Shown here in pieces: positions 4,472 through 63,345 of a stretch of 64,000 nt of DNA. A program made the position numbers and the translations under genes. Every line of letters starts with the position of its first letter. The stretch's first letter is position 1. Under the pieces are notes generated by a model. It saw nothing but the letters and a program-made list of their open reading frames with translations, had not been told where the DNA came from and ran no database searches. The DNA is from Lachnospiraceae bacterium (lineage in GTDB: Bacteria; Bacillota; Clostridia; Lachnospirales; Lachnospiraceae), in NCBI GenBank assembly GCA_045617945.1, contig JAZLJS010000101.1:11529-75528 (forward strand), written 5' to 3'.

Positions 4472-4498
4472 CCGGTAGGCTTTCCTACCGGCATTTTT
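4472..4498 (+). terminator. Rho-independent terminator-like hairpin
   Basis: CCGGTAGG-cttt-CCTACCGG followed by CATTTTT, 10 nt after the Hpt stop. Confidence 0.6.
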
Positions 4499-4525
4499 GG
4501 ATAACAATAATAGGAGATTACATTA

Positions 4526-5602
4526 GTGGAAAAGATTCTTGTAATTGACGATATGGAAATCAATTTGGAGATTCTGGAAGGGATTCTGGAGGATTATTAT
4601 TGTGTCCTTAAGGCGCATGACGGATTGGAAGCAGTACAGTTGTTAGATGAGAATCCGGATATTTCTTTGATGCTTTTGGATTTGTGCATGCCCAGAATGG
4701 ATGGCTTTGGTGTGATGAATGCCATGAAGGAAAGCGGTATGTTGGGACGTATTCCCATCATCGTCATCACGGGTGATGACTCTCTTGACAATGAGAGGCG
4801 ATGCTATGACTATGGTGTGAGTGACTTTATACGTAAGCCGTTTAACAGTACGATTGTACGTCTCAGAGTCGGAAATATCGTCAAACTGTATTCTTACAAG
4901 AACAGTTTGGAGGATACGGTTGCGGAACAGACCGAAGATCTGAAGAAACAGTATCTGTTGGTAAAGGAACAGGCTACAAAGCTTGTCGAATCCAATCAGA
5001 AGATTATCGATATTCTCGGTACTGTCGTTGAATCTCGTAATTTAGAGAGCGGACAGCATATTCAGCGTGTGAAGAATTATACTGAGATTCTTGCGAAACA
5101 GGTGATGGCGGATTGTCCGGAATATGGGATTACACAGCATGCGATTGATGTAATGGTTCCTGCGAGTGCACTTCACGATGTCGGTAAGATTGCGATTCCC
5201 GACAATATTCTTTTGAAGCCGGGTCGATTAACTTCCGAGGAATTCGATGTTATGAAAAGTCATACAATCAGGGGTTGTGAGATACTGGATAATATTAAAG
5301 GTGCCTGGGATAAAGAGTACGCCAGAATGAGTTATGAGATTTGTCGCTATCATCACGAGAAATACGACGGCAAGGGTTATCCTGACGGTTTGGTAGGGGA
5401 CGATATTCCCATTGCGGCACAGATTGTATCTGTTGCAGATATATATGATGCTCTCGTGAATGAACGTTGCTATAAGGATGCTTTTTCCAAAGAAAAAGCT
5501 TTTGAAATGATAACGCAGGGAGAGTGCGGTGCATTTTCAGATAAACTTATGAATGCGTTTTCAAAGGTGCGCGAAGAGTTTGAAAAGGTTACGGTCGGAT
5601 AG
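4526..5602 (+). CDS. Response regulator with HD-GYP c-di-GMP phosphodiesterase domain (RpfG type)
   Basis: REC motifs (ILVIDD, LMLLDLCMPRMDG, IRKP). HD-GYP motifs ALHDVGKIAIPD and HHEKYDGKGYPDG. GTG start 9 nt after AGGAG. Confidence 0.85.
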   Translation: MEKILVIDDMEINLEILEGILEDYYCVLKAHDGLEAVQLLDENPDISLMLLDLCMPRMDGFGVMNAMKESGMLGRIPIIVITGDDSLDNERRCYDYGVSDFIRKPFNSTIVRLRVGNIVKLYSYKNSLEDTVAEQTEDLKKQYLLVKEQATKLVESNQKIIDILGTVVESRNLESGQHIQRVKNYTEILAKQVMADCPEYGITQHAIDVMVPASALHDVGKIAIPDNILLKPGRLTSEEFDVMKSHTIRGCEILDNIKGAWDKEYARMSYEICRYHHEKYDGKGYPDGLVGDDIPIAAQIVSVADIYDALVNERCYKDAFSKEKAFEMITQGECGAFSDKLMNAFSKVREEFEKVTVG

Positions 5603-5647: not shown

Positions 5648-7966
5648 ATGGTAAATGTTGGTGTGTTATATGCAATCACAGCCGGTGTGGCTGCTATGGT
5701 GGTTGCAGTAATTTATAATCGTTTGAATGCAACAGGGTTTAAGGATCAGATTGATCAGAAACTGAGTTATTTGATCCGTTTTGTTCTTATATTCTGTATG
5801 GTTGATATGCTTTGGGGACTGTTGACGGCCAGATTGCATCCTGTTCTGATTAATCAATTCCTTTATTCGATATTTACGTATGCGTTTCATTGCGGTGCAG
5901 CTTTATCCTCATTTTTATGGTTCGGATATGTTATCCATTATTTGGATGAAGAACGTGCTGCTTCCATGAAAGTGTTGAATATTATTCGCGGAACGCTTTT
6001 GACAGTTCAGTTCTTGATTTTGATCAGTAATTTGTGGAATCACAAGTTCTTTTCCATTGATGCGGATGCACAGTACCATTCATATGTTTTGCGCAATACT
6101 ATGTTTTATCTTCAGTTTGCGTATTATATCGGACTTATTCTCAACGGAATCATTAAATGGATTTATTATGGCCGTAAGGGCAGAGTAGATCGTGTGTCGA
6201 AATACAAGACATCTATACTTTATTCCTGCGTTCCGTTGGCATTTGGTGTCGGCCAGATGTTATGGCCGGATGCAAGTATGTATTCGTTGGGATTTATGCT
6301 TACCTGTACGTTAATCTATTCGTTTAGTATTACTTCCGAAAGAGAAGGATATTTGCGTGACTTTTACAAGAAAGAAAACAGTAAGCTGATGGAACTGGCA
6401 GCAGGTCTTTCCGACGATAGTGAAGCGGTATATTTCGTGAATCTGGAAACAAATGAATACGAGACATATATCAACAGCCGAAATTACCAGGATGGGGTTA
6501 ATGCCAAGATTAATCACGGTAAGGATTTCTTCGAAGACCTGAAGAGTAATATCGGTATGGTTATTGCTCCCGAAGATCGGGATATGGTCACGAAAATGCT
6601 TATGAAGGAGTATGTTTTGGAAGAACTTTCGACCAAGCCTTCTTTTAGTTTTAACTACAAAATTGATGTGAATGGGCAGGAAAGGTATTATCTGATGAAG
6701 ATAGTCAAGCCTGTCGAAATGTCCGGTAAAAATATTGTTATCGGTGTATTTGATGATGATGAACGTGTCAGAAGCGAGATAGAACAACGCAGTCGTCTGC
6801 AGGAGGCGATGGAGCAGGCGGAACGTGCCAACCAGGCCAAGACGAACTTCCTGTTTAATATGAGCCATGATATTCGTACACCCATGAATGCGATTTTGGG
6901 ATTTACGGATCTTGCCAAGAAGCATATGGATGATCCGAAGTATTTATTGGATTGCCTGGATAAAGTGTCTGTATCCGGCAATCATCTGCTGGCATTGATT
7001 AATGATGTTCTTGATATGTCCCGTATTGAATCCGGTAAGCTTGTGATTAATTCCAAGAATGAGAATATTCGGGAACAAAGTGAAGAAATCGTCTCCATTA
7101 TGAAAGAGCTGGCGATTGCCAAGAGCATTGCGTTTAATCCGATTTATAAGGATTTGACGACGGAGTATGTTGTATGTGATGCGCTCCATTTGAATAAGAT
7201 TTTGATGAATATTCTTTCCAATGCAATAAAGTATACGCCGATGGGTGGACGTGTGGATTATATTATGGAGCAGATGCCAAATGATAATCCCGATAAGGCA
7301 ACGTTTAGGTTTGTTGTGCAGGATACCGGCGTAGGAATGAGTAAGGAATTTCTGGAACATGTTTTTGATGAATTCGAGCGCGAGTATTCTGCCACATTAA
7401 GCGGCGTGGAAGGAACAGGTCTCGGAATGTCTATTGTTAAACAGCTGGTGGATATGATGCAGGGTACTATCAATATTCAGAGTATCCGTGGTATCGGTAC
7501 AACAGTTGAGTGTATATTGACTTTCCCGAAGGGTGAGGTAATTGCTTCACAAGAGGATCAACACCGTGAAGATGAATCTGTTGATTTCACGGGTAAGCGT
7601 ATTCTCCTTGTAGATGATAATATTCTGAATCGTGAAATTGCGAATGATATTTTGCAGGATATGGGGGTTGAAGTTGAAACGGCCGATGACGGTGTAGATG
7701 CATGTGAGATGGTAGAGGCTGCTGCTCCCGGTTATTATAACCTGATTCTGATGGATGTTCAGATGCCTCGTATGGACGGTTATCAGGCAACTCGGAATAT
7801 TCGTGCATTATCGAATCCGGAGCTGGCAAACATTCCTATCGTAGCCATGACCGCTAACGCATTTGAAGAGGACAAGAAGAATGCCTTCGATTCCGGTATG
7901 AATGCCCACCTTGCGAAGCCAATTCATGTTGATCGATTGACTGAAGTGCTGAAAAGATATTTGTAA
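5648..7966 (+). CDS. Hybrid sensor histidine kinase/response regulator with multi-TM N-terminus
   Basis: H-box MSHDIRTPMNAILGF, N-box NILSNAIKYTP, G-boxes QDTGVGMS and GTGLGMS. C-terminal REC (ILLVDDN, LILMDVQMPRMDG, HLAKP). Confidence 0.9.
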   Translation: MVNVGVLYAITAGVAAMVVAVIYNRLNATGFKDQIDQKLSYLIRFVLIFCMVDMLWGLLTARLHPVLINQFLYSIFTYAFHCGAALSSFLWFGYVIHYLDEERAASMKVLNIIRGTLLTVQFLILISNLWNHKFFSIDADAQYHSYVLRNTMFYLQFAYYIGLILNGIIKWIYYGRKGRVDRVSKYKTSILYSCVPLAFGVGQMLWPDASMYSLGFMLTCTLIYSFSITSEREGYLRDFYKKENSKLMELAAGLSDDSEAVYFVNLETNEYETYINSRNYQDGVNAKINHGKDFFEDLKSNIGMVIAPEDRDMVTKMLMKEYVLEELSTKPSFSFNYKIDVNGQERYYLMKIVKPVEMSGKNIVIGVFDDDERVRSEIEQRSRLQEAMEQAERANQAKTNFLFNMSHDIRTPMNAILGFTDLAKKHMDDPKYLLDCLDKVSVSGNHLLALINDVLDMSRIESGKLVINSKNENIREQSEEIVSIMKELAIAKSIAFNPIYKDLTTEYVVCDALHLNKILMNILSNAIKYTPMGGRVDYIMEQMPNDNPDKATFRFVVQDTGVGMSKEFLEHVFDEFEREYSATLSGVEGTGLGMSIVKQLVDMMQGTINIQSIRGIGTTVECILTFPKGEVIASQEDQHREDESVDFTGKRILLVDDNILNREIANDILQDMGVEVETADDGVDACEMVEAAAPGYYNLILMDVQMPRMDGYQATRNIRALSNPELANIPIVAMTANAFEEDKKNAFDSGMNAHLAKPIHVDRLTEVLKRYL

Positions 7967-8130: not shown

Positions 8131-8132
8131 AG

Positions 8133-8206
8133 CGTGTGCTAGAGGATTCGAACCCCCGACCTTTTGGTCCGTAGCCAAACGCTCTATCCAGCTGAGCTAA
8201 GCACAC
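8133..8206 (-). tRNA. tRNA-Arg (anticodon ACG)
   Basis: Hand-folded cloverleaf, 74 nt. Acceptor GTGTGCT/AGCACAC, D arm GCTC..GAGC, anticodon stem TTTGG/CCAAA with loop CTACGGA, T loop TTCGAAT. Confidence 0.9.
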
Positions 8207-30307: not shown

Positions 30308-30353
30308 GATTTGTGCGTCGCGAGCGGGTAGCGGCAAGCAGGCAGCACTCTTT

Positions 30354-30428
30354 CGGGGTGTGGCTCAGCTTGGCTAGAGCGCCTGGTTTGGGACCAGGAG
30401 GTCGCAGGTTCGAATCCTGTCACCCCGA
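30354..30428 (+). tRNA. tRNA-Pro (anticodon TGG)
   Basis: Hand-folded, 75 nt. Acceptor CGGGGTG/CACCCCG, anticodon stem CCTGG/CCAGG with loop TTTGGGA, T loop TTCGAAT. Confidence 0.9.
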
Positions 30429-30435
30429 TGTATAT

Positions 30436-30509
<74 letters not shown>

Positions 30510-30583
30510 TTTGATTTGCAGAACATGAACAAATGCGACGTAGTCAGTTATTTCTGTTTGCAAATCGTGTTTGTTATGTATAT

Positions 30584-30658
<75 letters not shown>

Positions 30659-30717
30659 CTGCCAATAAGAATAATTGTTGGCGCCTTTGATTGGACGCAT
30701 TTCCGATTCAATCGCGT

Positions 30718-30789
30718 ACGGCTATCGCCAAGCGGTAAGGCACAGGGTTTTGATCCCTGCATTCGCTGGTTCGAATCCAGCTAGCCGTG
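30718..30789 (+). tRNA. tRNA-Gln (anticodon TTG)
   Basis: Hand-folded, 72 nt. Acceptor ACGGCTA/TAGCCGT, D arm GCC-AAGCGGTAA-GGC, anticodon stem CAGGG/CCCTG with loop TTTTGAT. Confidence 0.9.
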
Positions 30790-30806
30790 TTGGCACAAGC
30801 CAGAAT

Positions 30807-30879
30807 GGGATACTAGCTCAGTCGGTAGAGCACCTGACTTTTAATCAGGTTGTCGGGGGTTCGAATCCCCCGTGTCTCA
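30807..30879 (+). tRNA. tRNA-Lys (anticodon TTT)
   Basis: Hand-folded, 73 nt. Acceptor GGGATAC/GTGTCTC (with G-U pairs), anticodon stem CCTGA/TCAGG with loop CTTTTAA. Confidence 0.9.
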
Positions 30880-30890
30880 CGAACGAAAAA

Positions 30891-57600: not shown

Positions 57601-58785
57601 ATGAGCAAGAACTATAAACAGACATTAACCGCGTGTTATTTGGGGTTTGTGACCCAGGCAATTTGTGCCAATTTTGCCCCGTTGTTGTTTCTTACTTTTC
57701 ATAGTGAGTATGGGATAAGCTTTGCATCGTTGGCATTGATTTCTACTGTGTTTTTCTTTACGCAGCTTCTGGTTGATCTGGTATGCACAAAACTTGTGGA
57801 TATTATCGGGTACAGAACCTGCGTGGTAGCCGCGGAAGTCACATCGGCACTTGGACTTGCGGGTTTTGCATTCATTCCGAATTTATTGCCGACTCCTTTT
57901 TCCGGAATTATTTTATGCGTGATCATATATGCTATCGGAAGCGGACTTACCGAAGTCTTGGTAAGCCCGATTGTGGAGGCATGTCCATTTGATAATAAAG
58001 AAGCGACCATGAGTTTGTTGCACTCATTCTATTGCTGGGGAAGCGTGGGCGTAATCCTCGGGTCAACCGTTTTCTTCGCATTGTTCGGGGTAGAGAATTG
58101 GAAGATCCTGGCAGTTTTATGGGCGCTTGTTCCTATGGTTAATATATATAATTTTGCTGTTTGTCCTATCGAACGCCTTGTTGAAGACGGAGAGGGTATG
58201 ACGGTTCGAGAGCTTTTCTCGACGAAGATTTTTTGGGTGTTTATCATCTTAATGATATGTGCCGGTTCATCCGAACTGGCCATGGCACAGTGGGCTTCTG
58301 CATTTGCGGAGTCTGCACTTGGCGTTTCCAAAACAATCGGTGACTTGGCGGGACCATGTGGATTTGCGATATGCATGGGAATCAGTCGTGCGTTGTACGG
58401 AAAGTATGGTGAACGGATTGATTTGACGACATTTATGGTATTTTCCGGTCTGCTGTGTCTGGGCTGTTATTTACTGGCGGCGTTGGCACAGATTCCGATA
58501 TTGGGACTTGTGGGATGCGCGCTTTGCGGATTCTCCGTAGGCATTATGTGGCCGGGCTCCATTAGCATTTCTTCGCGTATCCTCAAAAAGGGCGGGACTG
58601 CATTGTTTGCGCTTTTGGCACTTGCGGGCGATCTGGGAGGTTCTCTCGGACCGGCAATTGTAGGATTGTTTTCGCAGAGGGCGGGAGAAAATCTGCAGGC
58701 CGGGGTGCTATATGGTATCGGATTTCCGATAGTGCTGGTATTGTGTGTTTTGTATATTCGAAGACAAAAGAAAGCGGAGTCCTAA
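57601..58785 (+). CDS. MFS transporter
   Basis: About 12 TM helices in a two-halves organisation. Its stop overlaps the stop of the convergent kinase gene (CTAA, 58782-58785). Confidence 0.75.
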   Translation: MSKNYKQTLTACYLGFVTQAICANFAPLLFLTFHSEYGISFASLALISTVFFFTQLLVDLVCTKLVDIIGYRTCVVAAEVTSALGLAGFAFIPNLLPTPFSGIILCVIIYAIGSGLTEVLVSPIVEACPFDNKEATMSLLHSFYCWGSVGVILGSTVFFALFGVENWKILAVLWALVPMVNIYNFAVCPIERLVEDGEGMTVRELFSTKIFWVFIILMICAGSSELAMAQWASAFAESALGVSKTIGDLAGPCGFAICMGISRALYGKYGERIDLTTFMVFSGLLCLGCYLLAALAQIPILGLVGCALCGFSVGIMWPGSISISSRILKKGGTALFALLALAGDLGGSLGPAIVGLFSQRAGENLQAGVLYGIGFPIVLVLCVLYIRRQKKAES

Positions 58786-61274
58786 GACAGCGCTTTCTTG
58801 ACTTTCTCTATCAGTTGTGCAGGATTAATCGGCTTGGAAATGTAGTCGCTAAATCCCATATTTATATATTGTTCGACAGCACCGAGCATAGCATTTGCGG
58901 TTTGTACGATTACCGGAGTATCGATATTCATGCCATCTTGCTGTGCTCGAATTCTTTGCAGTGTTTCTTCACCATCCATTTCAGGCATCATATGATCCAT
59001 GAGGATTAAGTCATATTTGGTCTTGGCTGTGTATTCCAGTGCTTCGGCACCGCTTGTTGCAAGATCCAGATTGACTTCGGTCTTTTTCAAAAGTCCCTTC
59101 AGTACGCGCAAATTGACGGAAGTATCATCAACTGCAAGGATGTGAGCATTCGGAGCCTTGAAGACTTCGGGTTCTTCCTTCTTGATCTCGACTTTCTGCT
59201 CAACATATTCCAGATCATCGGTTGTTTCGCTGCCACACATTTTCTGTGTAATGTAAGCGGTAAAGGTGGAGCCTTCGCCATATGTGCTCTTAACATCAAT
59301 ATCGCCGTTCATTAATTCCGTCAGCATTTTGGACAGCGGAAGCCCTAGCCCTGTTCCTTGTACAGTGCGATTGACTTTCTCATTCAGACGACGGAAAGTT
59401 GTAAACAGATGCGGAATATCTTCGGGTTTGATGCCTTGACCGCTGTCTTCGACGGACATATACAGACAAATGTTATCGTCGGCAAGATCCTTCCAATCAA
59501 TCAAAACGTGAATGAAGCCCTTCTCCGTATATTTGATGGAATTGGAGATTAAGTTGTTCAGAATCTGGCGGACACGTGCCTCGTCACCGAACAGTTTGCA
59601 GGGAATCGGCTTGGCAAAGTTCACGGAAAAATCGAGATTCTTCTGATGTGCAGAATTCGAATTTATCATGAAACATTCACGAATGATGGAAACAAGATTA
59701 TACTCTGCTTCGTTCAAATCCAATTTGCCGGATTCGATCTTGGACAAATCAAGAATATTATTAATAATTGAAAGCAAAATATGGCCGGTAGTGTCGATAT
59801 CCTCGGCATATTTGAGGATGGCCGGCTCGGTACATTCTTTGAGAATAATGGAATTCATGCCCAACACGCCGTTTAGCGGTGTACGCATCTCATGGGACAT
59901 ATTGGTCAAAAAGACGCTCTTGGCTTCGCTGGCTGCTTTGCTGGCGGCGCTCTTCTTGGCTTCTTCAAGCATTTCGTAACGTAGGCAGTTTACGCAGTTT
60001 TCCTTGGTGTTGAATCCATTGTAAATGGCGTCAACCATTTGCGTACAGGAATCGTAGCCGCAACTGGAGCAATTGATTTTGCGCTCTGCACTTGTTTGCT
60101 TGCCCATGGATTCGAAGATGGCGTCGCGTTCTTCGTCAGTCGGCGTGGTATAGCCACAATGTGCGGACAAATCGGTATATATTCTGAGAAAGTCACTCAA
60201 CTCAAGATCGGCAAACTGCTCGTTCAGTTTCGCAAGGCGTTCTTCTTTGGAAAGTGACGGATCCCATGGATTGTCCTGATTGGATTGTTTGATTGCGTTG
60301 CGAATATGCATCTGTGAGAAGAGTACAAAGTCATGCTCGTTCTTCTCGGGATCACATCCGGTGCCGTAAATACAACCGTTGGAGCAGTTTAAGGCATCTA
60401 CCAGAATAAACGGAGCTATCTTGTTCTTGAGAATGGATTTGTTCTTCTCCAGATAATGGTACATGCGCTTCTCACCATCCATCTGGCGGACAAAAGCATC
60501 CTCGCCCAAGAACCAGCGAATGTTCTCGGTCAGACCGCCGGGCATAGGGTATACGCTTCCCAAACCGTACGGAACTTCATCGGTACAGGTAGATGGAATG
60601 CGGGGATGTGACTTTATGTATTGTATTAAATGTTTGAATGTGATGTTATAGCTGACGCGCCCTTCGTTAACGGGATCGTCAATTTCCATCTTCTTGGCAA
60701 TGCAAGGAGAGATGAATGCCAGAGAATCAGTGATGTTCATGTGTTTCTTGGCATAGATGGCAGCACACATCAACGGACTTTGAACGGGAATCAGGCAGTC
60801 AATCAATTCCGGAAGATGTCGTTCAACGTAGCTGACAACAGCCGGACAAGGTTGAGAGATTCCACCTTTAAAGTCATACTTCTGTATATAATTGATGTAT
60901 CCCCATGTGGCAATATCGGCACCAAACGATACGTTAATAAAGCGGTTTACACCGCAGGAACGCAAATAGCCGAGAAAGATGGGGTATTCGTTGGGATAGT
61001 TTGCTTTGAAGGCGGGTGCAATGAGAACCGAGATTTGTTTGCCGTTCTGCAAATCTTCGAAGAATCTCTCGGTATCGTCGCGGAATTCTCGAGCATGATG
61101 TTCACAAACATCCAGGCAGGCACCACAGCCGACGCAACGATTGGCGTCAACACGAATTTTGTGCACTCCGTTTTCTTCTACAGCAACACAAGCTCCGTTG
61201 GAGGAGCAAACACTGATACATCTGTTGCATCCGATACAATTGTCATTTGTGTAAATAAGTGAATTAGTAAGCAT
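58782..61274 (-). CDS. Hybrid histidine kinase/response regulator with N-terminal ferredoxin plus [FeFe]-hydrogenase-like (H-cluster-type) sensor domain
   Basis: 2x CxxCxxCxxxC (CIGCNRCISVC, CVGCGACLDVC). Hydrogenase-like motifs SQPCPAV, SPCIAKKME, NCSNGCIYG. CSSCGYDSCTQMVDAI Fe-S motif. H-box MSHEMRTPLNGVLGM. REC ILAVDD / LILMDHMMPEMDG. I chose the ATG at 61274; a TTG at 61292 is possible. Confidence 0.85.
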   Translation of the reverse strand: MLTNSLIYTNDNCIGCNRCISVCSSNGACVAVEENGVHKIRVDANRCVGCGACLDVCEHHAREFRDDTERFFEDLQNGKQISVLIAPAFKANYPNEYPIFLGYLRSCGVNRFINVSFGADIATWGYINYIQKYDFKGGISQPCPAVVSYVERHLPELIDCLIPVQSPLMCAAIYAKKHMNITDSLAFISPCIAKKMEIDDPVNEGRVSYNITFKHLIQYIKSHPRIPSTCTDEVPYGLGSVYPMPGGLTENIRWFLGEDAFVRQMDGEKRMYHYLEKNKSILKNKIAPFILVDALNCSNGCIYGTGCDPEKNEHDFVLFSQMHIRNAIKQSNQDNPWDPSLSKEERLAKLNEQFADLELSDFLRIYTDLSAHCGYTTPTDEERDAIFESMGKQTSAERKINCSSCGYDSCTQMVDAIYNGFNTKENCVNCLRYEMLEEAKKSAASKAASEAKSVFLTNMSHEMRTPLNGVLGMNSIILKECTEPAILKYAEDIDTTGHILLSIINNILDLSKIESGKLDLNEAEYNLVSIIRECFMINSNSAHQKNLDFSVNFAKPIPCKLFGDEARVRQILNNLISNSIKYTEKGFIHVLIDWKDLADDNICLYMSVEDSGQGIKPEDIPHLFTTFRRLNEKVNRTVQGTGLGLPLSKMLTELMNGDIDVKSTYGEGSTFTAYITQKMCGSETTDDLEYVEQKVEIKKEEPEVFKAPNAHILAVDDTSVNLRVLKGLLKKTEVNLDLATSGAEALEYTAKTKYDLILMDHMMPEMDGEETLQRIRAQQDGMNIDTPVIVQTANAMLGAVEQYINMGFSDYISKPINPAQLIEKVKKALS

Positions 61275-61394
61275 ACTATCAGAATACCACAATGAGGCAG
61301 GAATACAAGAAATATTCAGCGTGAAATTGAAATTTCGGTGTTGTAAATTTATAATAATCGTGTAAATCTTTTGCAGATATTAGGGAGACCGAAC

Positions 61395-61649
61395 GTGAAT
61401 AGAGGAATTAAACGGGTGGGGGTATTGGCAGTGAGTATTATATCGATGCTTTCATTTTTGAGCGGATGCGGTAAGGCCGGTAATAACGGTGAAACCGTAA
61501 CACTTACCGAAGGTGCGGAACTGGTTGGTTTGTATATGACGCATCAGGGGATGGCAATGGAACCGCATTACATTTTGCGAATAAATGGTCCCTTGGGGAC
61601 GGGGTTAGGGGGTCATTTTTCCTTGGAACGAGTTGATTTGAATAAGTAA
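61395..61649 (+). CDS. Short lipoprotein-like ORF, possibly truncated
   Basis: GTG at 61395 lies 7 nt after AGGGAG. Signal peptide with lipobox FLSGCGK. The last 20 or so codons run through direct-repeat copy 1. Confidence 0.45.
   Translation: MNRGIKRVGVLAVSIISMLSFLSGCGKAGNNGETVTLTEGAELVGLYMTHQGMAMEPHYILRINGPLGTGLGGHFSLERVDLNK
61586..61618. repeat. 33-bp direct repeat, copy 1 (upstream of the CAT-family gene)
   Basis: TGGTCCCTTGGGGACGGGGTTAGGGGGTCATTT. It matches 62303-62335 at 32 of 33 positions. Confidence 0.95.
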
Positions 61650-61659
61650 AGGAGTAGGT

Positions 61660-62298
61660 ATGCGGGAAATAGATTTGGAATCATGGGAGCGCAAGAGCTT
61701 ATATGAAGGTTATATGGGATTTGATCGCGGATGTTTTAACATTACCGTGAAGATTCCGGCGCAGGAAACATATGATTATTGCAAAAGTCATGGGATTTCG
61801 TTTTTTCTGGCATCTTTATACGGAATAGCGCGAACGGCGAATGAGGTTGAGAACTTCAAATATCGAGAACTTTCGGAGGGCCATGTGGCAATTATGGATC
61901 CTGTGAATATTGTGACTCCTATCGATATAGGAAATGATTTGTTTAAAGAGATGGAGATGCGCTACTATCCGGAATTCGGGCAATTTGTGGAGGAAGCGAA
62001 CAAGGTTATTGCGTCGGCTAAGGGCCGCACGGATGCTTCGATGGGAGATTGCGACGAATATTCAATGATTGTCAGTTGTGTACCATGGATTCATTTTGAA
62101 GCATTGACACTTCCGGATTATACTTTTCGGCAGAGCACGCCGATCATTACGTACGGTCGCCTGAAGGACGGTGAGATACCTGTTAATATTCGCGCGCATC
62201 ATGCATTCATAGATGGTAAGCATGTCAGCCATTTTGTGGATCTGCTTGGCAAAATATGGGGGGAATCCTGCGGAATATTTGAATTCTTGAACTCTTGA
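61660..62298 (+). CDS. CAT-family (CatA-like) O-acetyltransferase
   Basis: 212 aa, collinear with type-A chloramphenicol acetyltransferases: W-x-R near the N-terminus, PWIHF, and the catalytic region AHHAFIDGKHVSHF (compare HHAVCDGFHV). AAAGGAG RBS. Confidence 0.75.
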   Translation: MREIDLESWERKSLYEGYMGFDRGCFNITVKIPAQETYDYCKSHGISFFLASLYGIARTANEVENFKYRELSEGHVAIMDPVNIVTPIDIGNDLFKEMEMRYYPEFGQFVEEANKVIASAKGRTDASMGDCDEYSMIVSCVPWIHFEALTLPDYTFRQSTPIITYGRLKDGEIPVNIRAHHAFIDGKHVSHFVDLLGKIWGESCGIFEFLNS

Positions 62299-62302
62299 GG
62301 TG

Positions 62303-62335
62303 TGGTCTCTTGGGGACGGGGTTAGGGGGTCATTT
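62303..62335. repeat. 33-bp direct repeat, copy 2 (downstream of the CAT-family gene, carrying the SD of the GNAT gene)
   Basis: TGGTCTCTTGGGGACGGGGTTAGGGGGTCATTT ends immediately before the ATG at 62336. Confidence 0.95.
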
Positions 62336-63181
62336 ATGAAGAAAGAATATTTTACAATTTTCGATGCTTGTTTTCCGAACATGAAGATTTCCTATGAAAT
62401 CTTTTGCGAACTGCTGCATGCAGATGATTGTGTTTGTTTTGAAAGCAAGGTTGATAATGAAATTTGTGCATTTGCCATTGTTGAAGATTCAGCGATTCGT
62501 CTTTTGTGTGTAAGCCCTTCAAAACAAAGGCGGGGTATTGGAACTGCGTTGTTTGCCGACATAGAAAAATATGCCGAAAGCAAAGGCTTTGACGAATTGC
62601 TTACCGGTGGTGTGTCCTCTAAACTGTTTATTGGCGCGACATCCGAAAGCTGGGGATTTTTTGAAAAAATGGGATTTGTATCCGTTGGCGGATGTGATGA
62701 AATGCTTCTTTTGTTGGATGACTTTCATTTTGATCAGCTTACATTGCACGGTAGCGATGTTGCCGAATATGGATGGTTTCAAGGGGATATGAACGACATC
62801 AGGTCTGCTGTTGCGCAGGTAAATGAGAATTGGGTACAGTTTTATACACAGCCCGATAATATATATGTTGCAACGGTGAACGGTGAAATCGCCAGTTTCT
62901 GTTTGGTTGATACCAATTGTCGGAATTATTTGACAGACAAGTATGGGAAAGTCGGAATGCCGGGGTGTGTTGGCTCAGTTCCCAAGTTCAGGGATAAAGG
63001 AATTGCTCTTGAAATGATTGCCAGAGTGACGGATTATCTAAAAGATCAAGGGATGGATATTTCTTTCATTTTCTTTACCGGAGTGGCAAAATGGTACGAA
63101 AAAATCGGGTACCGTACGTTTCTTTCGGAATGTTTTGGAGTAAAACGGCTGGACATTAGTAATCGGAGAATAAACCAGTGA
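62336..63181 (+). CDS. GNAT family N-acetyltransferase (two-domain)
   Basis: Acetyl-CoA motif VSPSKQRRGIGTALF. I chose the ATG at 62336 after AGGGGG. The upstream 12 codons in the ORF track lie in the repeat. Confidence 0.75.
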   Translation: MKKEYFTIFDACFPNMKISYEIFCELLHADDCVCFESKVDNEICAFAIVEDSAIRLLCVSPSKQRRGIGTALFADIEKYAESKGFDELLTGGVSSKLFIGATSESWGFFEKMGFVSVGGCDEMLLLLDDFHFDQLTLHGSDVAEYGWFQGDMNDIRSAVAQVNENWVQFYTQPDNIYVATVNGEIASFCLVDTNCRNYLTDKYGKVGMPGCVGSVPKFRDKGIALEMIARVTDYLKDQGMDISFIFFTGVAKWYEKIGYRTFLSECFGVKRLDISNRRINQ

Positions 63182-63345
63182 AATATGCAATTATATCAGA
63201 TATACATGGGAATGTTTACGCTTTGAATGCCGTATTGGAGGATGCAGAAGAGTATGCGAATGAGATTGGCGATTCGCAAAGCCCCTATTCTGTAGAAACT
63301 TGGGAACAGGCCTTCTACAGCCGGAAAGGACCTTTGTGGAAATAA
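63178..63345 (+). pseudogene. Remnant of a metallophosphoesterase gene (55 codons)
   Basis: My translation: VKYAIISDIHGNVYALNAVLEDAEEY... It has the N-terminal DxHG motif of calcineurin-like phosphoesterases but stops after 55 codons. The GTG overlaps the GNAT stop. Confidence 0.5.

Follow-up and report, generated by a model that had tools for sequence, protein, structure and literature searches.

A dispersed REP-like repeat associated with an IS200-like transposase in Lachnospiraceae, and its two copies around a CatA-like acyltransferase gene

The two 33-nt direct repeats that bracket a chloramphenicol acetyltransferase (CAT)-like gene in a 64-kb stretch of DNA from a Lachnospiraceae bacterium (contig JAZLJS010000101.1 of assembly GCA_045617945.1; the whole stretch of 64,000 nt is hereafter called the window) belong to a dispersed family of ~30-nt elements resembling repetitive extragenic palindromic (REP) sequences. 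The organization of the locus is likely to be explained by the presence of such REP-like elements in adjacent intergenic spacers, combined with repeat-linked rearrangement. The family is common to a group of rumen and hindgut Lachnospiraceae and its copies are almost all extragenic; in relatives, the repeat travels with the gene of an IS200-like transposase, of a type resembling REP-associated tyrosine transposases (RAYTs); in the window, a lipoprotein gene is truncated at the first of the two copies; and, between related genomes, copies coincide with gene-order breakpoints. An earlier note on this DNA had proposed that the arrangement is a single-gene cassette, inserted by recombination at, or with duplication of, the 33-nt site. 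Here we argue that this proposal is partly supported: a rearrangement at copy 1 and breaks at copies elsewhere speak for it, whereas a cassette specific to the CAT-like gene is not supported, the repeat being an element of a dispersed family and the gene being of ordinary composition with no recombinase gene near it.

The locus consists of the following features, all on the + strand (coordinates are those of the window; ORF, open reading frame; RBS, ribosome-binding site):

61327..61355, +: promoter-like site TTGAAA-17-TATAAT, 11/12, a consensus match only; upstream of the lipoprotein remnant
61395..61585, +: 5' remnant of a lipoprotein gene, ~64 codons, with a signal peptide, lipobox LSGC and ~40 residues; the frame stays open across the repeat until the stop at 61647-61649
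61586..61618, +: REP-like element copy 1, the 30-nt core TGGTCCCTTGGGGACGGGGTTAGGGGGTCA plus TTT; nhmmer E = 8.6e-10; junction with the truncated lipoprotein gene
61619..61659, +: leader of 41 nt with AAGGAG, from sequence inspection; the TAA (61647-61649) of the remnant ORF overlaps this AAGGAG, the RBS of the CAT-like gene
61660..62298, +: gene of a predicted CatA-like (CAT-fold) O-acyltransferase, 212 codons; PF00302 at 74 bits, catalytic motif HHAFIDG
62303..62335, +: REP-like element copy 2; nhmmer E = 1e-8; starts 5 nt after the CAT stop codon and ends one base before the GNAT ATG
62336..63181, +: gene of a two-domain GNAT N-acetyltransferase, 281 aa; Acetyltransf_1, _7, _9 and _10
63178..63345, +: 55-codon ORF with a Metallophos_2-like N-terminus; residues 1-44 match positions 1-47 of 154 in the PF12850 profile, E = 7e-4, below the cut-off

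The order within this local patch is, accordingly, lipoprotein remnant, repeat, CAT-like gene, repeat, and then the GNAT gene with the phosphoesterase remnant. Direct comparison of the two sites confirmed the repeat, TGGTC(C/T)CTTGGGGACGGGGTTAGGGGGTCATTT, on the + strand: the copies are identical at 32 of 33 positions, with C/T at position 6, and the similarity between the two sites ends exactly at the 33-nt edges on both sides. With up to three mismatches allowed, the window contains exactly these two matches to the 33-mer, as compared to none in 100 dinucleotide-preserving shuffles, and a profile derived from many family members revealed no further copy, degenerate ones included, in the whole window. 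The space between the copies, just as the earlier note had described it, holds only the leader with its RBS, the 212-codon gene and the 4 nt, GGTG, that separate its stop codon from copy 2; similarly, copy 2 does abut the ATG of the GNAT gene, such that its GGGGG run occupies the Shine-Dalgarno position.

The repeat extends far beyond this genome. A 24-nt core has exact matches in 10 stretches from 7 Lachnospiraceae genomes, namely rumen, goat and horse metagenome-assembled genomes (MAGs) and isolate XPB1003, with four of the contigs coming from one MAG; as many as 28 metagenome contigs contain a 21-nt core; and a profile search over all fetched loci (designated L001 and so on) yielded 102 copies from 40 sources. 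The unit is ~30 nt long and consists of a variable left arm TG(A/G)N(C)C (TGRNCY), an invariant G-rich centre CTTGGGGACGGGGTTAG and a right arm GGGGTCA, with runs of T or A often following on the 3' side. The centre, which can also be written as GGGGACGGGGTTAGGGGG / GGGGACGGGG and includes a 17-nt invariant G-rich stretch, is identical over 18-21 nt across genomes with transposases, considered below, of no more than 62-80% identity, and it is the arms on either side that vary; this non-palindromic part of the repeat is, in other words, better conserved than the enzyme. In particular, the copy at 1608-1640 of L008, from a horse-gut MAG, is identical to window copy 2 at 33/33 positions and so is closer to it than window copy 1 is, and copies in L003, L006 and L025 match copy 1 throughout its 30-nt core. 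Because of this 33/33 match, the near-identity of the two window copies is uninformative on recent duplication, and their 32/33 agreement is the normal conservation within the family and does not point to copying at insertion. The occurrence of the same 30-33-mer in other genomes also contradicts its interpretation as a target duplication or as the attachment site of a cassette. The earlier note had named a common intergenic motif as the finding that would speak against a cassette, and such a motif, mostly extragenic, is largely what the profile search recovered. No Rfam family matched the repeat at the gathering thresholds or at E values up to 10, and no paper containing the repeat sequence itself was found in the literature searched. 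A phage origin was considered and rejected: the 21-nt core has no match among viral contigs.

The placement of the copies follows a recognizable habit. Nearly all of them lie between ORFs, and the cases flagged as being inside genes are mostly ORFs that read through the repeat; the copy at position 1226 of L038 truly lies within an ORF, of 463 aa. About 23 copies are located between -2 and 52 nt past the stop codon of a co-oriented ORF, and window copy 2, 5 nt past the CAT stop codon, is a typical case of this family placement. Inverted doublets are present in L005, L016, L019, L027, L028, L029, L030, L033, L041 and L042, and the L005 doublet folds at -35.8 kcal/mol (z = -11.3). The copies also cluster, with runs through consecutive spacers in L001, L008, L033 and L042. 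Specifically, L001 has three direct copies, each ahead of one gene (for an esterase, a membrane protein and a GNAT protein); L008 has seven copies, tandem doublets among them, across three successive spacers and antisense to the genes; L033 has nine copies; and L042 has fourteen, around a transposase gene. The earlier note had suggested looking for the same repeat around other genes, and such cases do exist: direct pairs enclose one ORF in L023 (a lipoprotein) and in L040 (an ORF next to a toxin-antitoxin-like pair). A gene between two direct copies, as in the window, is a recurrent pattern of this family. Two further candidates for the nature of the repeat were rejected. A CRISPR-like array does not agree with copies 717 nt apart that have a gene between them, nor with the inverted doublets seen elsewhere, and an intramolecular quadruplex with four G-runs is, judging from the sequence, impossible for a solo unit, which has three.

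It was also observed that ORF callers read through the repeat in more than one frame (window 61371-61649; L004 1344-1736; L008 1488-1784 and 2241-2498; L009 1031-2176), leaving recurrent peptide strings such as PLGTGLGGHF, WSLGDGVRGSF and DPLTPSPRD at the ends of proteins. Such repeat-derived ends could produce false protein-family links in databases.

The enzyme that could move these elements is found next to them in relatives. A gene for a 256-aa transposase of the Y1/HUH type adjoins repeat copies in six loci: in L002, L004, L009 and L039, the gene is enclosed by inverted copies (+ and -) that are ~880 nt apart, and a copy adjoins it in L042 and in L015, where the gene is cut by the end of the locus. 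The coordinates of these RAYT-like genes are:

L004, 670-1437
L002, 1145-1912
L009, 2233-3000
L039, 286-1053, - strand
L042, 6046-6813, - strand

The protein scores 51-54 bits against Pfam Y1_Tnp (cut-off 23) and 65.5 bits against the NCBIfam model of REP-associated tyrosine transposases, REP_Tyr_transpos, which is below the cut-off of 80; its sole significant match among solved structures is TnpA-REP of E. coli (4ER8, E = 0.002). The motifs H-I-H and YIHNNPVK are invariant in the five full-length proteins, which are 62-80% identical. All of this is followed by a conserved C-terminal extension of ~110 aa that ends in a helix-turn-helix, KGLTxKQIARLMDxSxSTVKR, and it might be this predicted helix-turn-helix that reads the invariant G-rich centre of the repeat.

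With this partner enzyme in view, the possibility that the 33-mer is an attC-like site, and the CAT-like gene a cassette moved by an integron-type or another site-specific recombinase, can be assessed. Integron attC sites are imperfect inverted repeats of ~57-141 nt with a GTTRRRY core, and an IntI integrase is encoded nearby. A single, promoterless-looking gene between direct repeats and the resemblance of GTTAGGG, within the repeat, to the attC core speak for this reading, but GTTAGGG does not satisfy GTTRRRY, the 30-33-nt element has no extended imperfect palindrome of the attC type, and the enzyme that accompanies the element in relatives belongs to the Y1/HUH transposases and not to the tyrosine recombinases. 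Furthermore, no integrase or transposase gene is present in the 44-64 kb part of the window, the locus being free of integrase and recombinase genes for 17 kb upstream and 1.7 kb downstream. An integron-type origin is hereby essentially refuted.

The same features bear on whether the repeat is a selected cis-acting signal that is not mobile, that is, an RNA element or a protein-binding site such as an operator, an mRNA-stabilizing element or a translation element. A signal of this kind would account for the invariance of the 21-nt G-rich core among genomes in which the transposases have diverged to 62-80% identity, for the many sense-oriented copies located just 3' of genes, and for the G-run that copy 2 places in the Shine-Dalgarno position. 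It is difficult to reconcile with the occurrence of copies in both orientations relative to genes, with the inverted and tandem doublets, with the flanking of a transposase gene and the coincidence with gene-order breakpoints, and with the absence of both an Rfam match and covariation in support of a structure. As a replacement for the REP-like interpretation, it is highly improbable; as a secondary role of the element, it is compatible with that interpretation and, in this sense, is not a true alternative.

In the window itself, a trace of rearrangement is seen in the lipoprotein gene. The earlier note found the ORF that ends in copy 1 suspiciously short, and it is indeed a remnant: copy 1 forms the 3' part of this lipoprotein-like ORF of 92 aa, and, in a HMMER search against 1.84 billion representatives, residues 5-66 matched the N-termini of lipoproteins of 189-367 aa at 57-60% identity. 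The homology ends at 61583-61592, that is, at the left edge of copy 1 (61586), so that the gene is cut at codon 64, and the rest of it is nowhere in the window. Because the homology stops at the edge of copy 1 and the remainder of the gene is missing from the window, copy 1 is a deletion or fusion junction and not a simple insertion. At the other end of the patch, the start of the 55-codon ORF at 63178-63345, a second gene remnant, overlaps the stop codon of the GNAT gene; no repeat was seen at the break of this ORF. The ORF may delimit the rearranged patch on its right side.

Comparison of relatives places breaks at the repeats as well. A block comprising the membrane protein gene, a repeat and the GNAT gene is 95% identical between L001 and L015, and its ends are within ~20 nt of two L001 copies; at both ends, L015 continues with unrelated sequence and has no repeat. 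The sequences of L009 and L039 (99% identical) and those of L002 and L015 (98%) share everything that runs from the core of the repeat into the transposase gene and are unrelated beyond the outer arm, and homology between L016 and L042 stops at repeat doublets. Duplications that include a repeat were also found: in L007, segments 4476-4574 and 7419-7517 (also seen in L032) are copies of 99 nt, 96% identical, that comprise the repeat and ~70 nt next to it, and in L040, the repeat and the same ~25-nt spacer, at 1053-1110 and 1757-1840, flank a 197-aa ORF, the duplicated segment being ~55 nt long. The second L040 site runs on into an inverted partial copy, and a BrnT/BrnA-like toxin-antitoxin pair is located just upstream. 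Thus, the repeats coincide with gene-order breakpoints between relatives that are 95-99% identical and, because they do so, a link of the repeats to gene gain or loss is plausible.

Two details of these loci can be added. The ~70 nt in the L007 duplication come from the 3' end of an oppositely oriented gene of 433 aa, so that a gene fragment was copied along with the repeat, and in the L001 copy at ~1020-1040, 11 nt of the left arm are duplicated in tandem (CCCTTGGGTGA-CCCTTGGGGAC) as compared to the orthologous L015 copy at ~835.

Under the explanation that we favour, the window 33-mers are solo copies of the ~30-nt REP-like element, which would be spread by the transposase via single-stranded DNA intermediates, and rearrangements would result from recombination, or from one-ended transposase events, at the repeats. 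Copy 1 can then be envisaged as the join of a rearrangement that removed all of the lipoprotein gene beyond its first 64 codons and set the CAT-GNAT pair behind the lipoprotein promoter, such that the two genes would be co-transcribed, and copy 2 as an element that entered the short spacer between the CAT and GNAT genes. Entry of copy 2 into a pre-existing spacer fits the sequence, because in-silico removal of its 30-nt core gives ...TCTTGAGGTG joined to TTTATG, with a canonical GAGGTG Shine-Dalgarno sequence ahead of the native start codon of the GNAT gene. As for expression, the strong promoter-like site at 61327-61355 is the likely driver of a transcript comprising the remnant, the CAT-like gene and the GNAT gene. 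Since this site is present, since no terminator-like site was found on the + strand from there to 63500 and, hence, none before the GNAT gene, and since the remnant ORF stops inside the CAT RBS, the CAT and GNAT genes are probably transcribed from the lipoprotein promoter, with translation of the CAT-like gene probably coupled to that of the remnant ORF.

Several observations weigh against this explanation. Solo units fold at -1.2 to -4.1 kcal/mol, with z of about -1.5 to -2.4, no better than shuffles; the terminal arms, TGA-N-CC and GG-N-TCA, pair at a mean of 5.1/7 positions, which makes for a weak palindrome; and the covariation between the arms is not significant, the observed value being reached in 220/2000 permutations. 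The GT(A/G)G or CGTC head is found at no unit terminus, the termini being TG(A/G)N at the start and TCA at the end (within the repeat, CGTC is seen only internally, on the C-rich strand). The exact 24-mer is present in 1-4 copies per representative genome, with two copies per 64-kb window, which suggests a low copy number per genome, seemingly tens at most and not hundreds, and, with so few copies, the presence of both window copies beside one gene is unlikely unless copies cluster or arrived jointly with the gene. No RAYT-like gene is present in the 64-kb window, so that mobilization in the source organism is inferred. Finally, neither an empty nor an alternative state of the window site was found among the relatives searched, none of which is of the same species.

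Much of the latter search bears on another possibility, namely, that the repeats captured the gene. A unit of leader, CAT-like gene and repeat, or the whole patch from the first repeat through the GNAT gene, would have been moved by recombination between copies, either RecA-dependent or transposase-catalysed, and the empty site would carry one copy. That copy 1 is a rearrangement junction, that gene order breaks at repeats between relatives 95-99% identical, and that direct pairs enclose single accessory-type genes in L023, L040 and L001 is all in line with such capture, as are the duplicated segments of repeat plus flank in L007 and L040 (99 and ~55 nt), the presence of both copies found in 64 kb on the two sides of the CAT-like gene, and the fact that the adjacency of the CAT and GNAT genes was seen in no relative examined. 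Yet neither an empty site nor a second location of the CAT unit was found, and in-silico empty sites for 54 repeat copies yielded none among the fetched loci; the pair L001 and L015, the one candidate for an empty site, proved to be a filled site with the 11-nt duplication described above. The exact CAT and GNAT proteins have no record found elsewhere. The nearest CAT homologue, 71% identical (L011), has a small GNAT gene on one side, a MarR-like gene on the other and no repeat nearby, and its upstream region has no similarity to the leader at 61619-61659. The six GNAT homologues (74-77% identical, with L049 among them) occur in six different contexts, none with a repeat, and the orthologues of the adjacent histidine kinase (70-74% identical) share no gene order with the window on either side. 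Because the relatives of the CAT, GNAT and histidine kinase genes are only 70-77% identical and are found in different contexts, the ancestral site is not reconstructable from them. Capture is further disfavoured by the composition of the CAT-like gene, which is not anomalous, by the normal junction of Shine-Dalgarno sequence and ATG that removal of copy 2 leaves, by the antisense filling of spacers and the tandem doublets in L008, which look like spread of the repeat, and by the loss of the 3' part of the lipoprotein gene, which the capture model alone leaves unexplained. We consider it unlikely. A bolder variant, which we rate as less probable still, would have the REP-like element and the HUH transposase work as a gene-shuffling system, in which repeat-bounded accessory genes (acetyltransferases, an esterase, lipoproteins, small genes of unknown function) are moved or swapped by transposase-catalysed or repeat-to-repeat joining, and repeat-CAT-repeat would be one module, with an integron-like outcome achieved by a single-strand transposase.

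Returning to the genes of the patch, the CAT fold of the protein that the earlier note had placed in the CAT family is confirmed by PF00302, by the motif HHAFIDG, which aligns with the CAT active-site region, and by the closest solved structures (9xc8 and 2i9d, E about 1e-24), whereas a bona fide CatA is not indicated: the protein scores 87.8 bits against NCBIfam chloram_CatA (NF000491), below the equivalog cut-off of 270, and 154.9 bits against CatA_like_1 (NF033155), for which the cut-off is 300. A known plasmid-borne CAT was rejected as its identity, no such enzyme being more than 35% identical (<=35%). The gene is accordingly predicted to encode a CatA-like acyltransferase, and chloramphenicol resistance should not be assumed. 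Composition gave no evidence of a foreign origin of the gene, its GC content being 0.438 as compared to 0.43 for the window. The GNAT gene starts at the same ATG (62336) as its homologues that are 74-77% identical. Within 176-3322 of L049, genes for a tyrosine integrase and an IS91-family (Y2) transposase immediately precede the 74%-identical homologue; because of this position, it is suggested that the GNAT-type acetyltransferase gene is itself often moved.

Upstream of the patch, the - strand of the window (58782-61292) encodes a hybrid histidine kinase of 836 aa, in which an Fe-only-hydrogenase-like sensor with 4Fe-4S ferredoxin motifs is followed by HisKA, HATPase and receiver domains; it has thousands of homologues in Lachnospiraceae, many of them longer, with an added Hpt domain. 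The only Rfam matches in the window are a cluster of five tRNAs (Pro, Arg, His, Gln, Lys) at 30353-30880 and a lone tRNA-Arg at 8132-8206.

As to what these results mean, a false lead has been removed, in that the repeats mark no new resistance-gene cassette. Should it be true that the repeats drive accessory-gene exchange, they would usefully mark the plasticity of genomes in gut Firmicutes and be a tractable case of HUH transposases reshaping genomes.

How, then, does this family relate to known systems? With regard to the enzymes of the patch, the window protein shares the CAT fold and the HHxxxDG motif with CatA-like family 1 (NF033155) and with type A CATs, and differs from the former in scoring about half the family cut-off and from plasmid-borne CATs in its low identity. 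Integron cassettes are resembled inasmuch as single genes are separated by a recurring short element, sometimes in runs (L001 and the window), but there is neither an integrase nor an attC architecture, the element occurs in both orientations and in doublets, and its partner is an HUH transposase. The insertion sequences (IS) of the IS200/IS605 group, with their miniature derivatives, are closer: the transposase is of the Y1_Tnp superfamily, a short non-autonomous derivative spreads, and recognition of short structured ends is to be expected. The ends of IS200/IS605 elements, however, are dissimilar subterminal hairpins on one strand, whereas in Lachnospiraceae they are inverted copies of one element, and the best structural relative of the Lachnospiraceae transposase is TnpA-REP, not TnpA of IS608.

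The closest parallel is found in the REP/REPIN-RAYT systems, REPINs being hairpin-forming doublets of REPs (Nunvar 2010, PMC2817692; Bertels and Rainey 2011, PMC3116915; Bertels 2017, PMC5581495). The defining arrangement of these systems is a RAYT gene flanked by inverted REPs (PMC2817692); for the most part, REPs lie on the downstream side of genes, and there are RAYT genes whose bounding inverted repeats lack GTAG and make up families of moderate abundance (PMC3733652); in Clostridia, RAYTs of Group 1 are present, flanked by 16-mers of low copy number (PMC5581495). The Lachnospiraceae family shares with them a ~30-nt extragenic repeat, hairpin-forming inverted doublets, a Y1/HUH gene between two inverted copies, and a preference of the copies, which cluster, for spots just downstream of genes, and its low copy number is like that of Group 1 RAYTs. 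It is particularly similar to the families of Di Nocera 2013 (PMC3733652), in which the transposase gene is likewise bounded by non-GTAG inverted repeats that are also a moderately abundant dispersed family, except that Firmicutes are not mentioned for those families in the text of PMC3733652. The differences are equally distinct. The GT(A/G)G or CGTC head, which serves as a criterion for REPs (PMC2817692, PMC3733652), is absent from the Lachnospiraceae unit, whose palindrome is weak and whose invariant G-rich centre spans 17 nt; the transposase, unlike classical RAYTs including E. coli TnpA-REP, has the extra C-terminus of ~110 aa with a helix-turn-helix and scores below the NCBIfam RAYT cut-off; the copy number seems to be tens at most and not hundreds, a high abundance of ~100 or more copies per genome being characteristic of REP systems; and the unit of transposase and repeats is found in differing contexts within sequences that are 98-99% identical, which is more IS-like than is the case for a domesticated RAYT. 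Taken together, these comparisons describe an element that is REP-like in behaviour and that lacks the GTAG/CGTC head of REPs. Since REP/RAYT systems and REP-associated rearrangements are already known, what is new is a member of this group from rumen and hindgut Lachnospiraceae with a combination of atypical features, namely, an invariant G-rich centre, termini without GTAG, a weak palindrome, a low copy number and a transposase extended by a helix-turn-helix.

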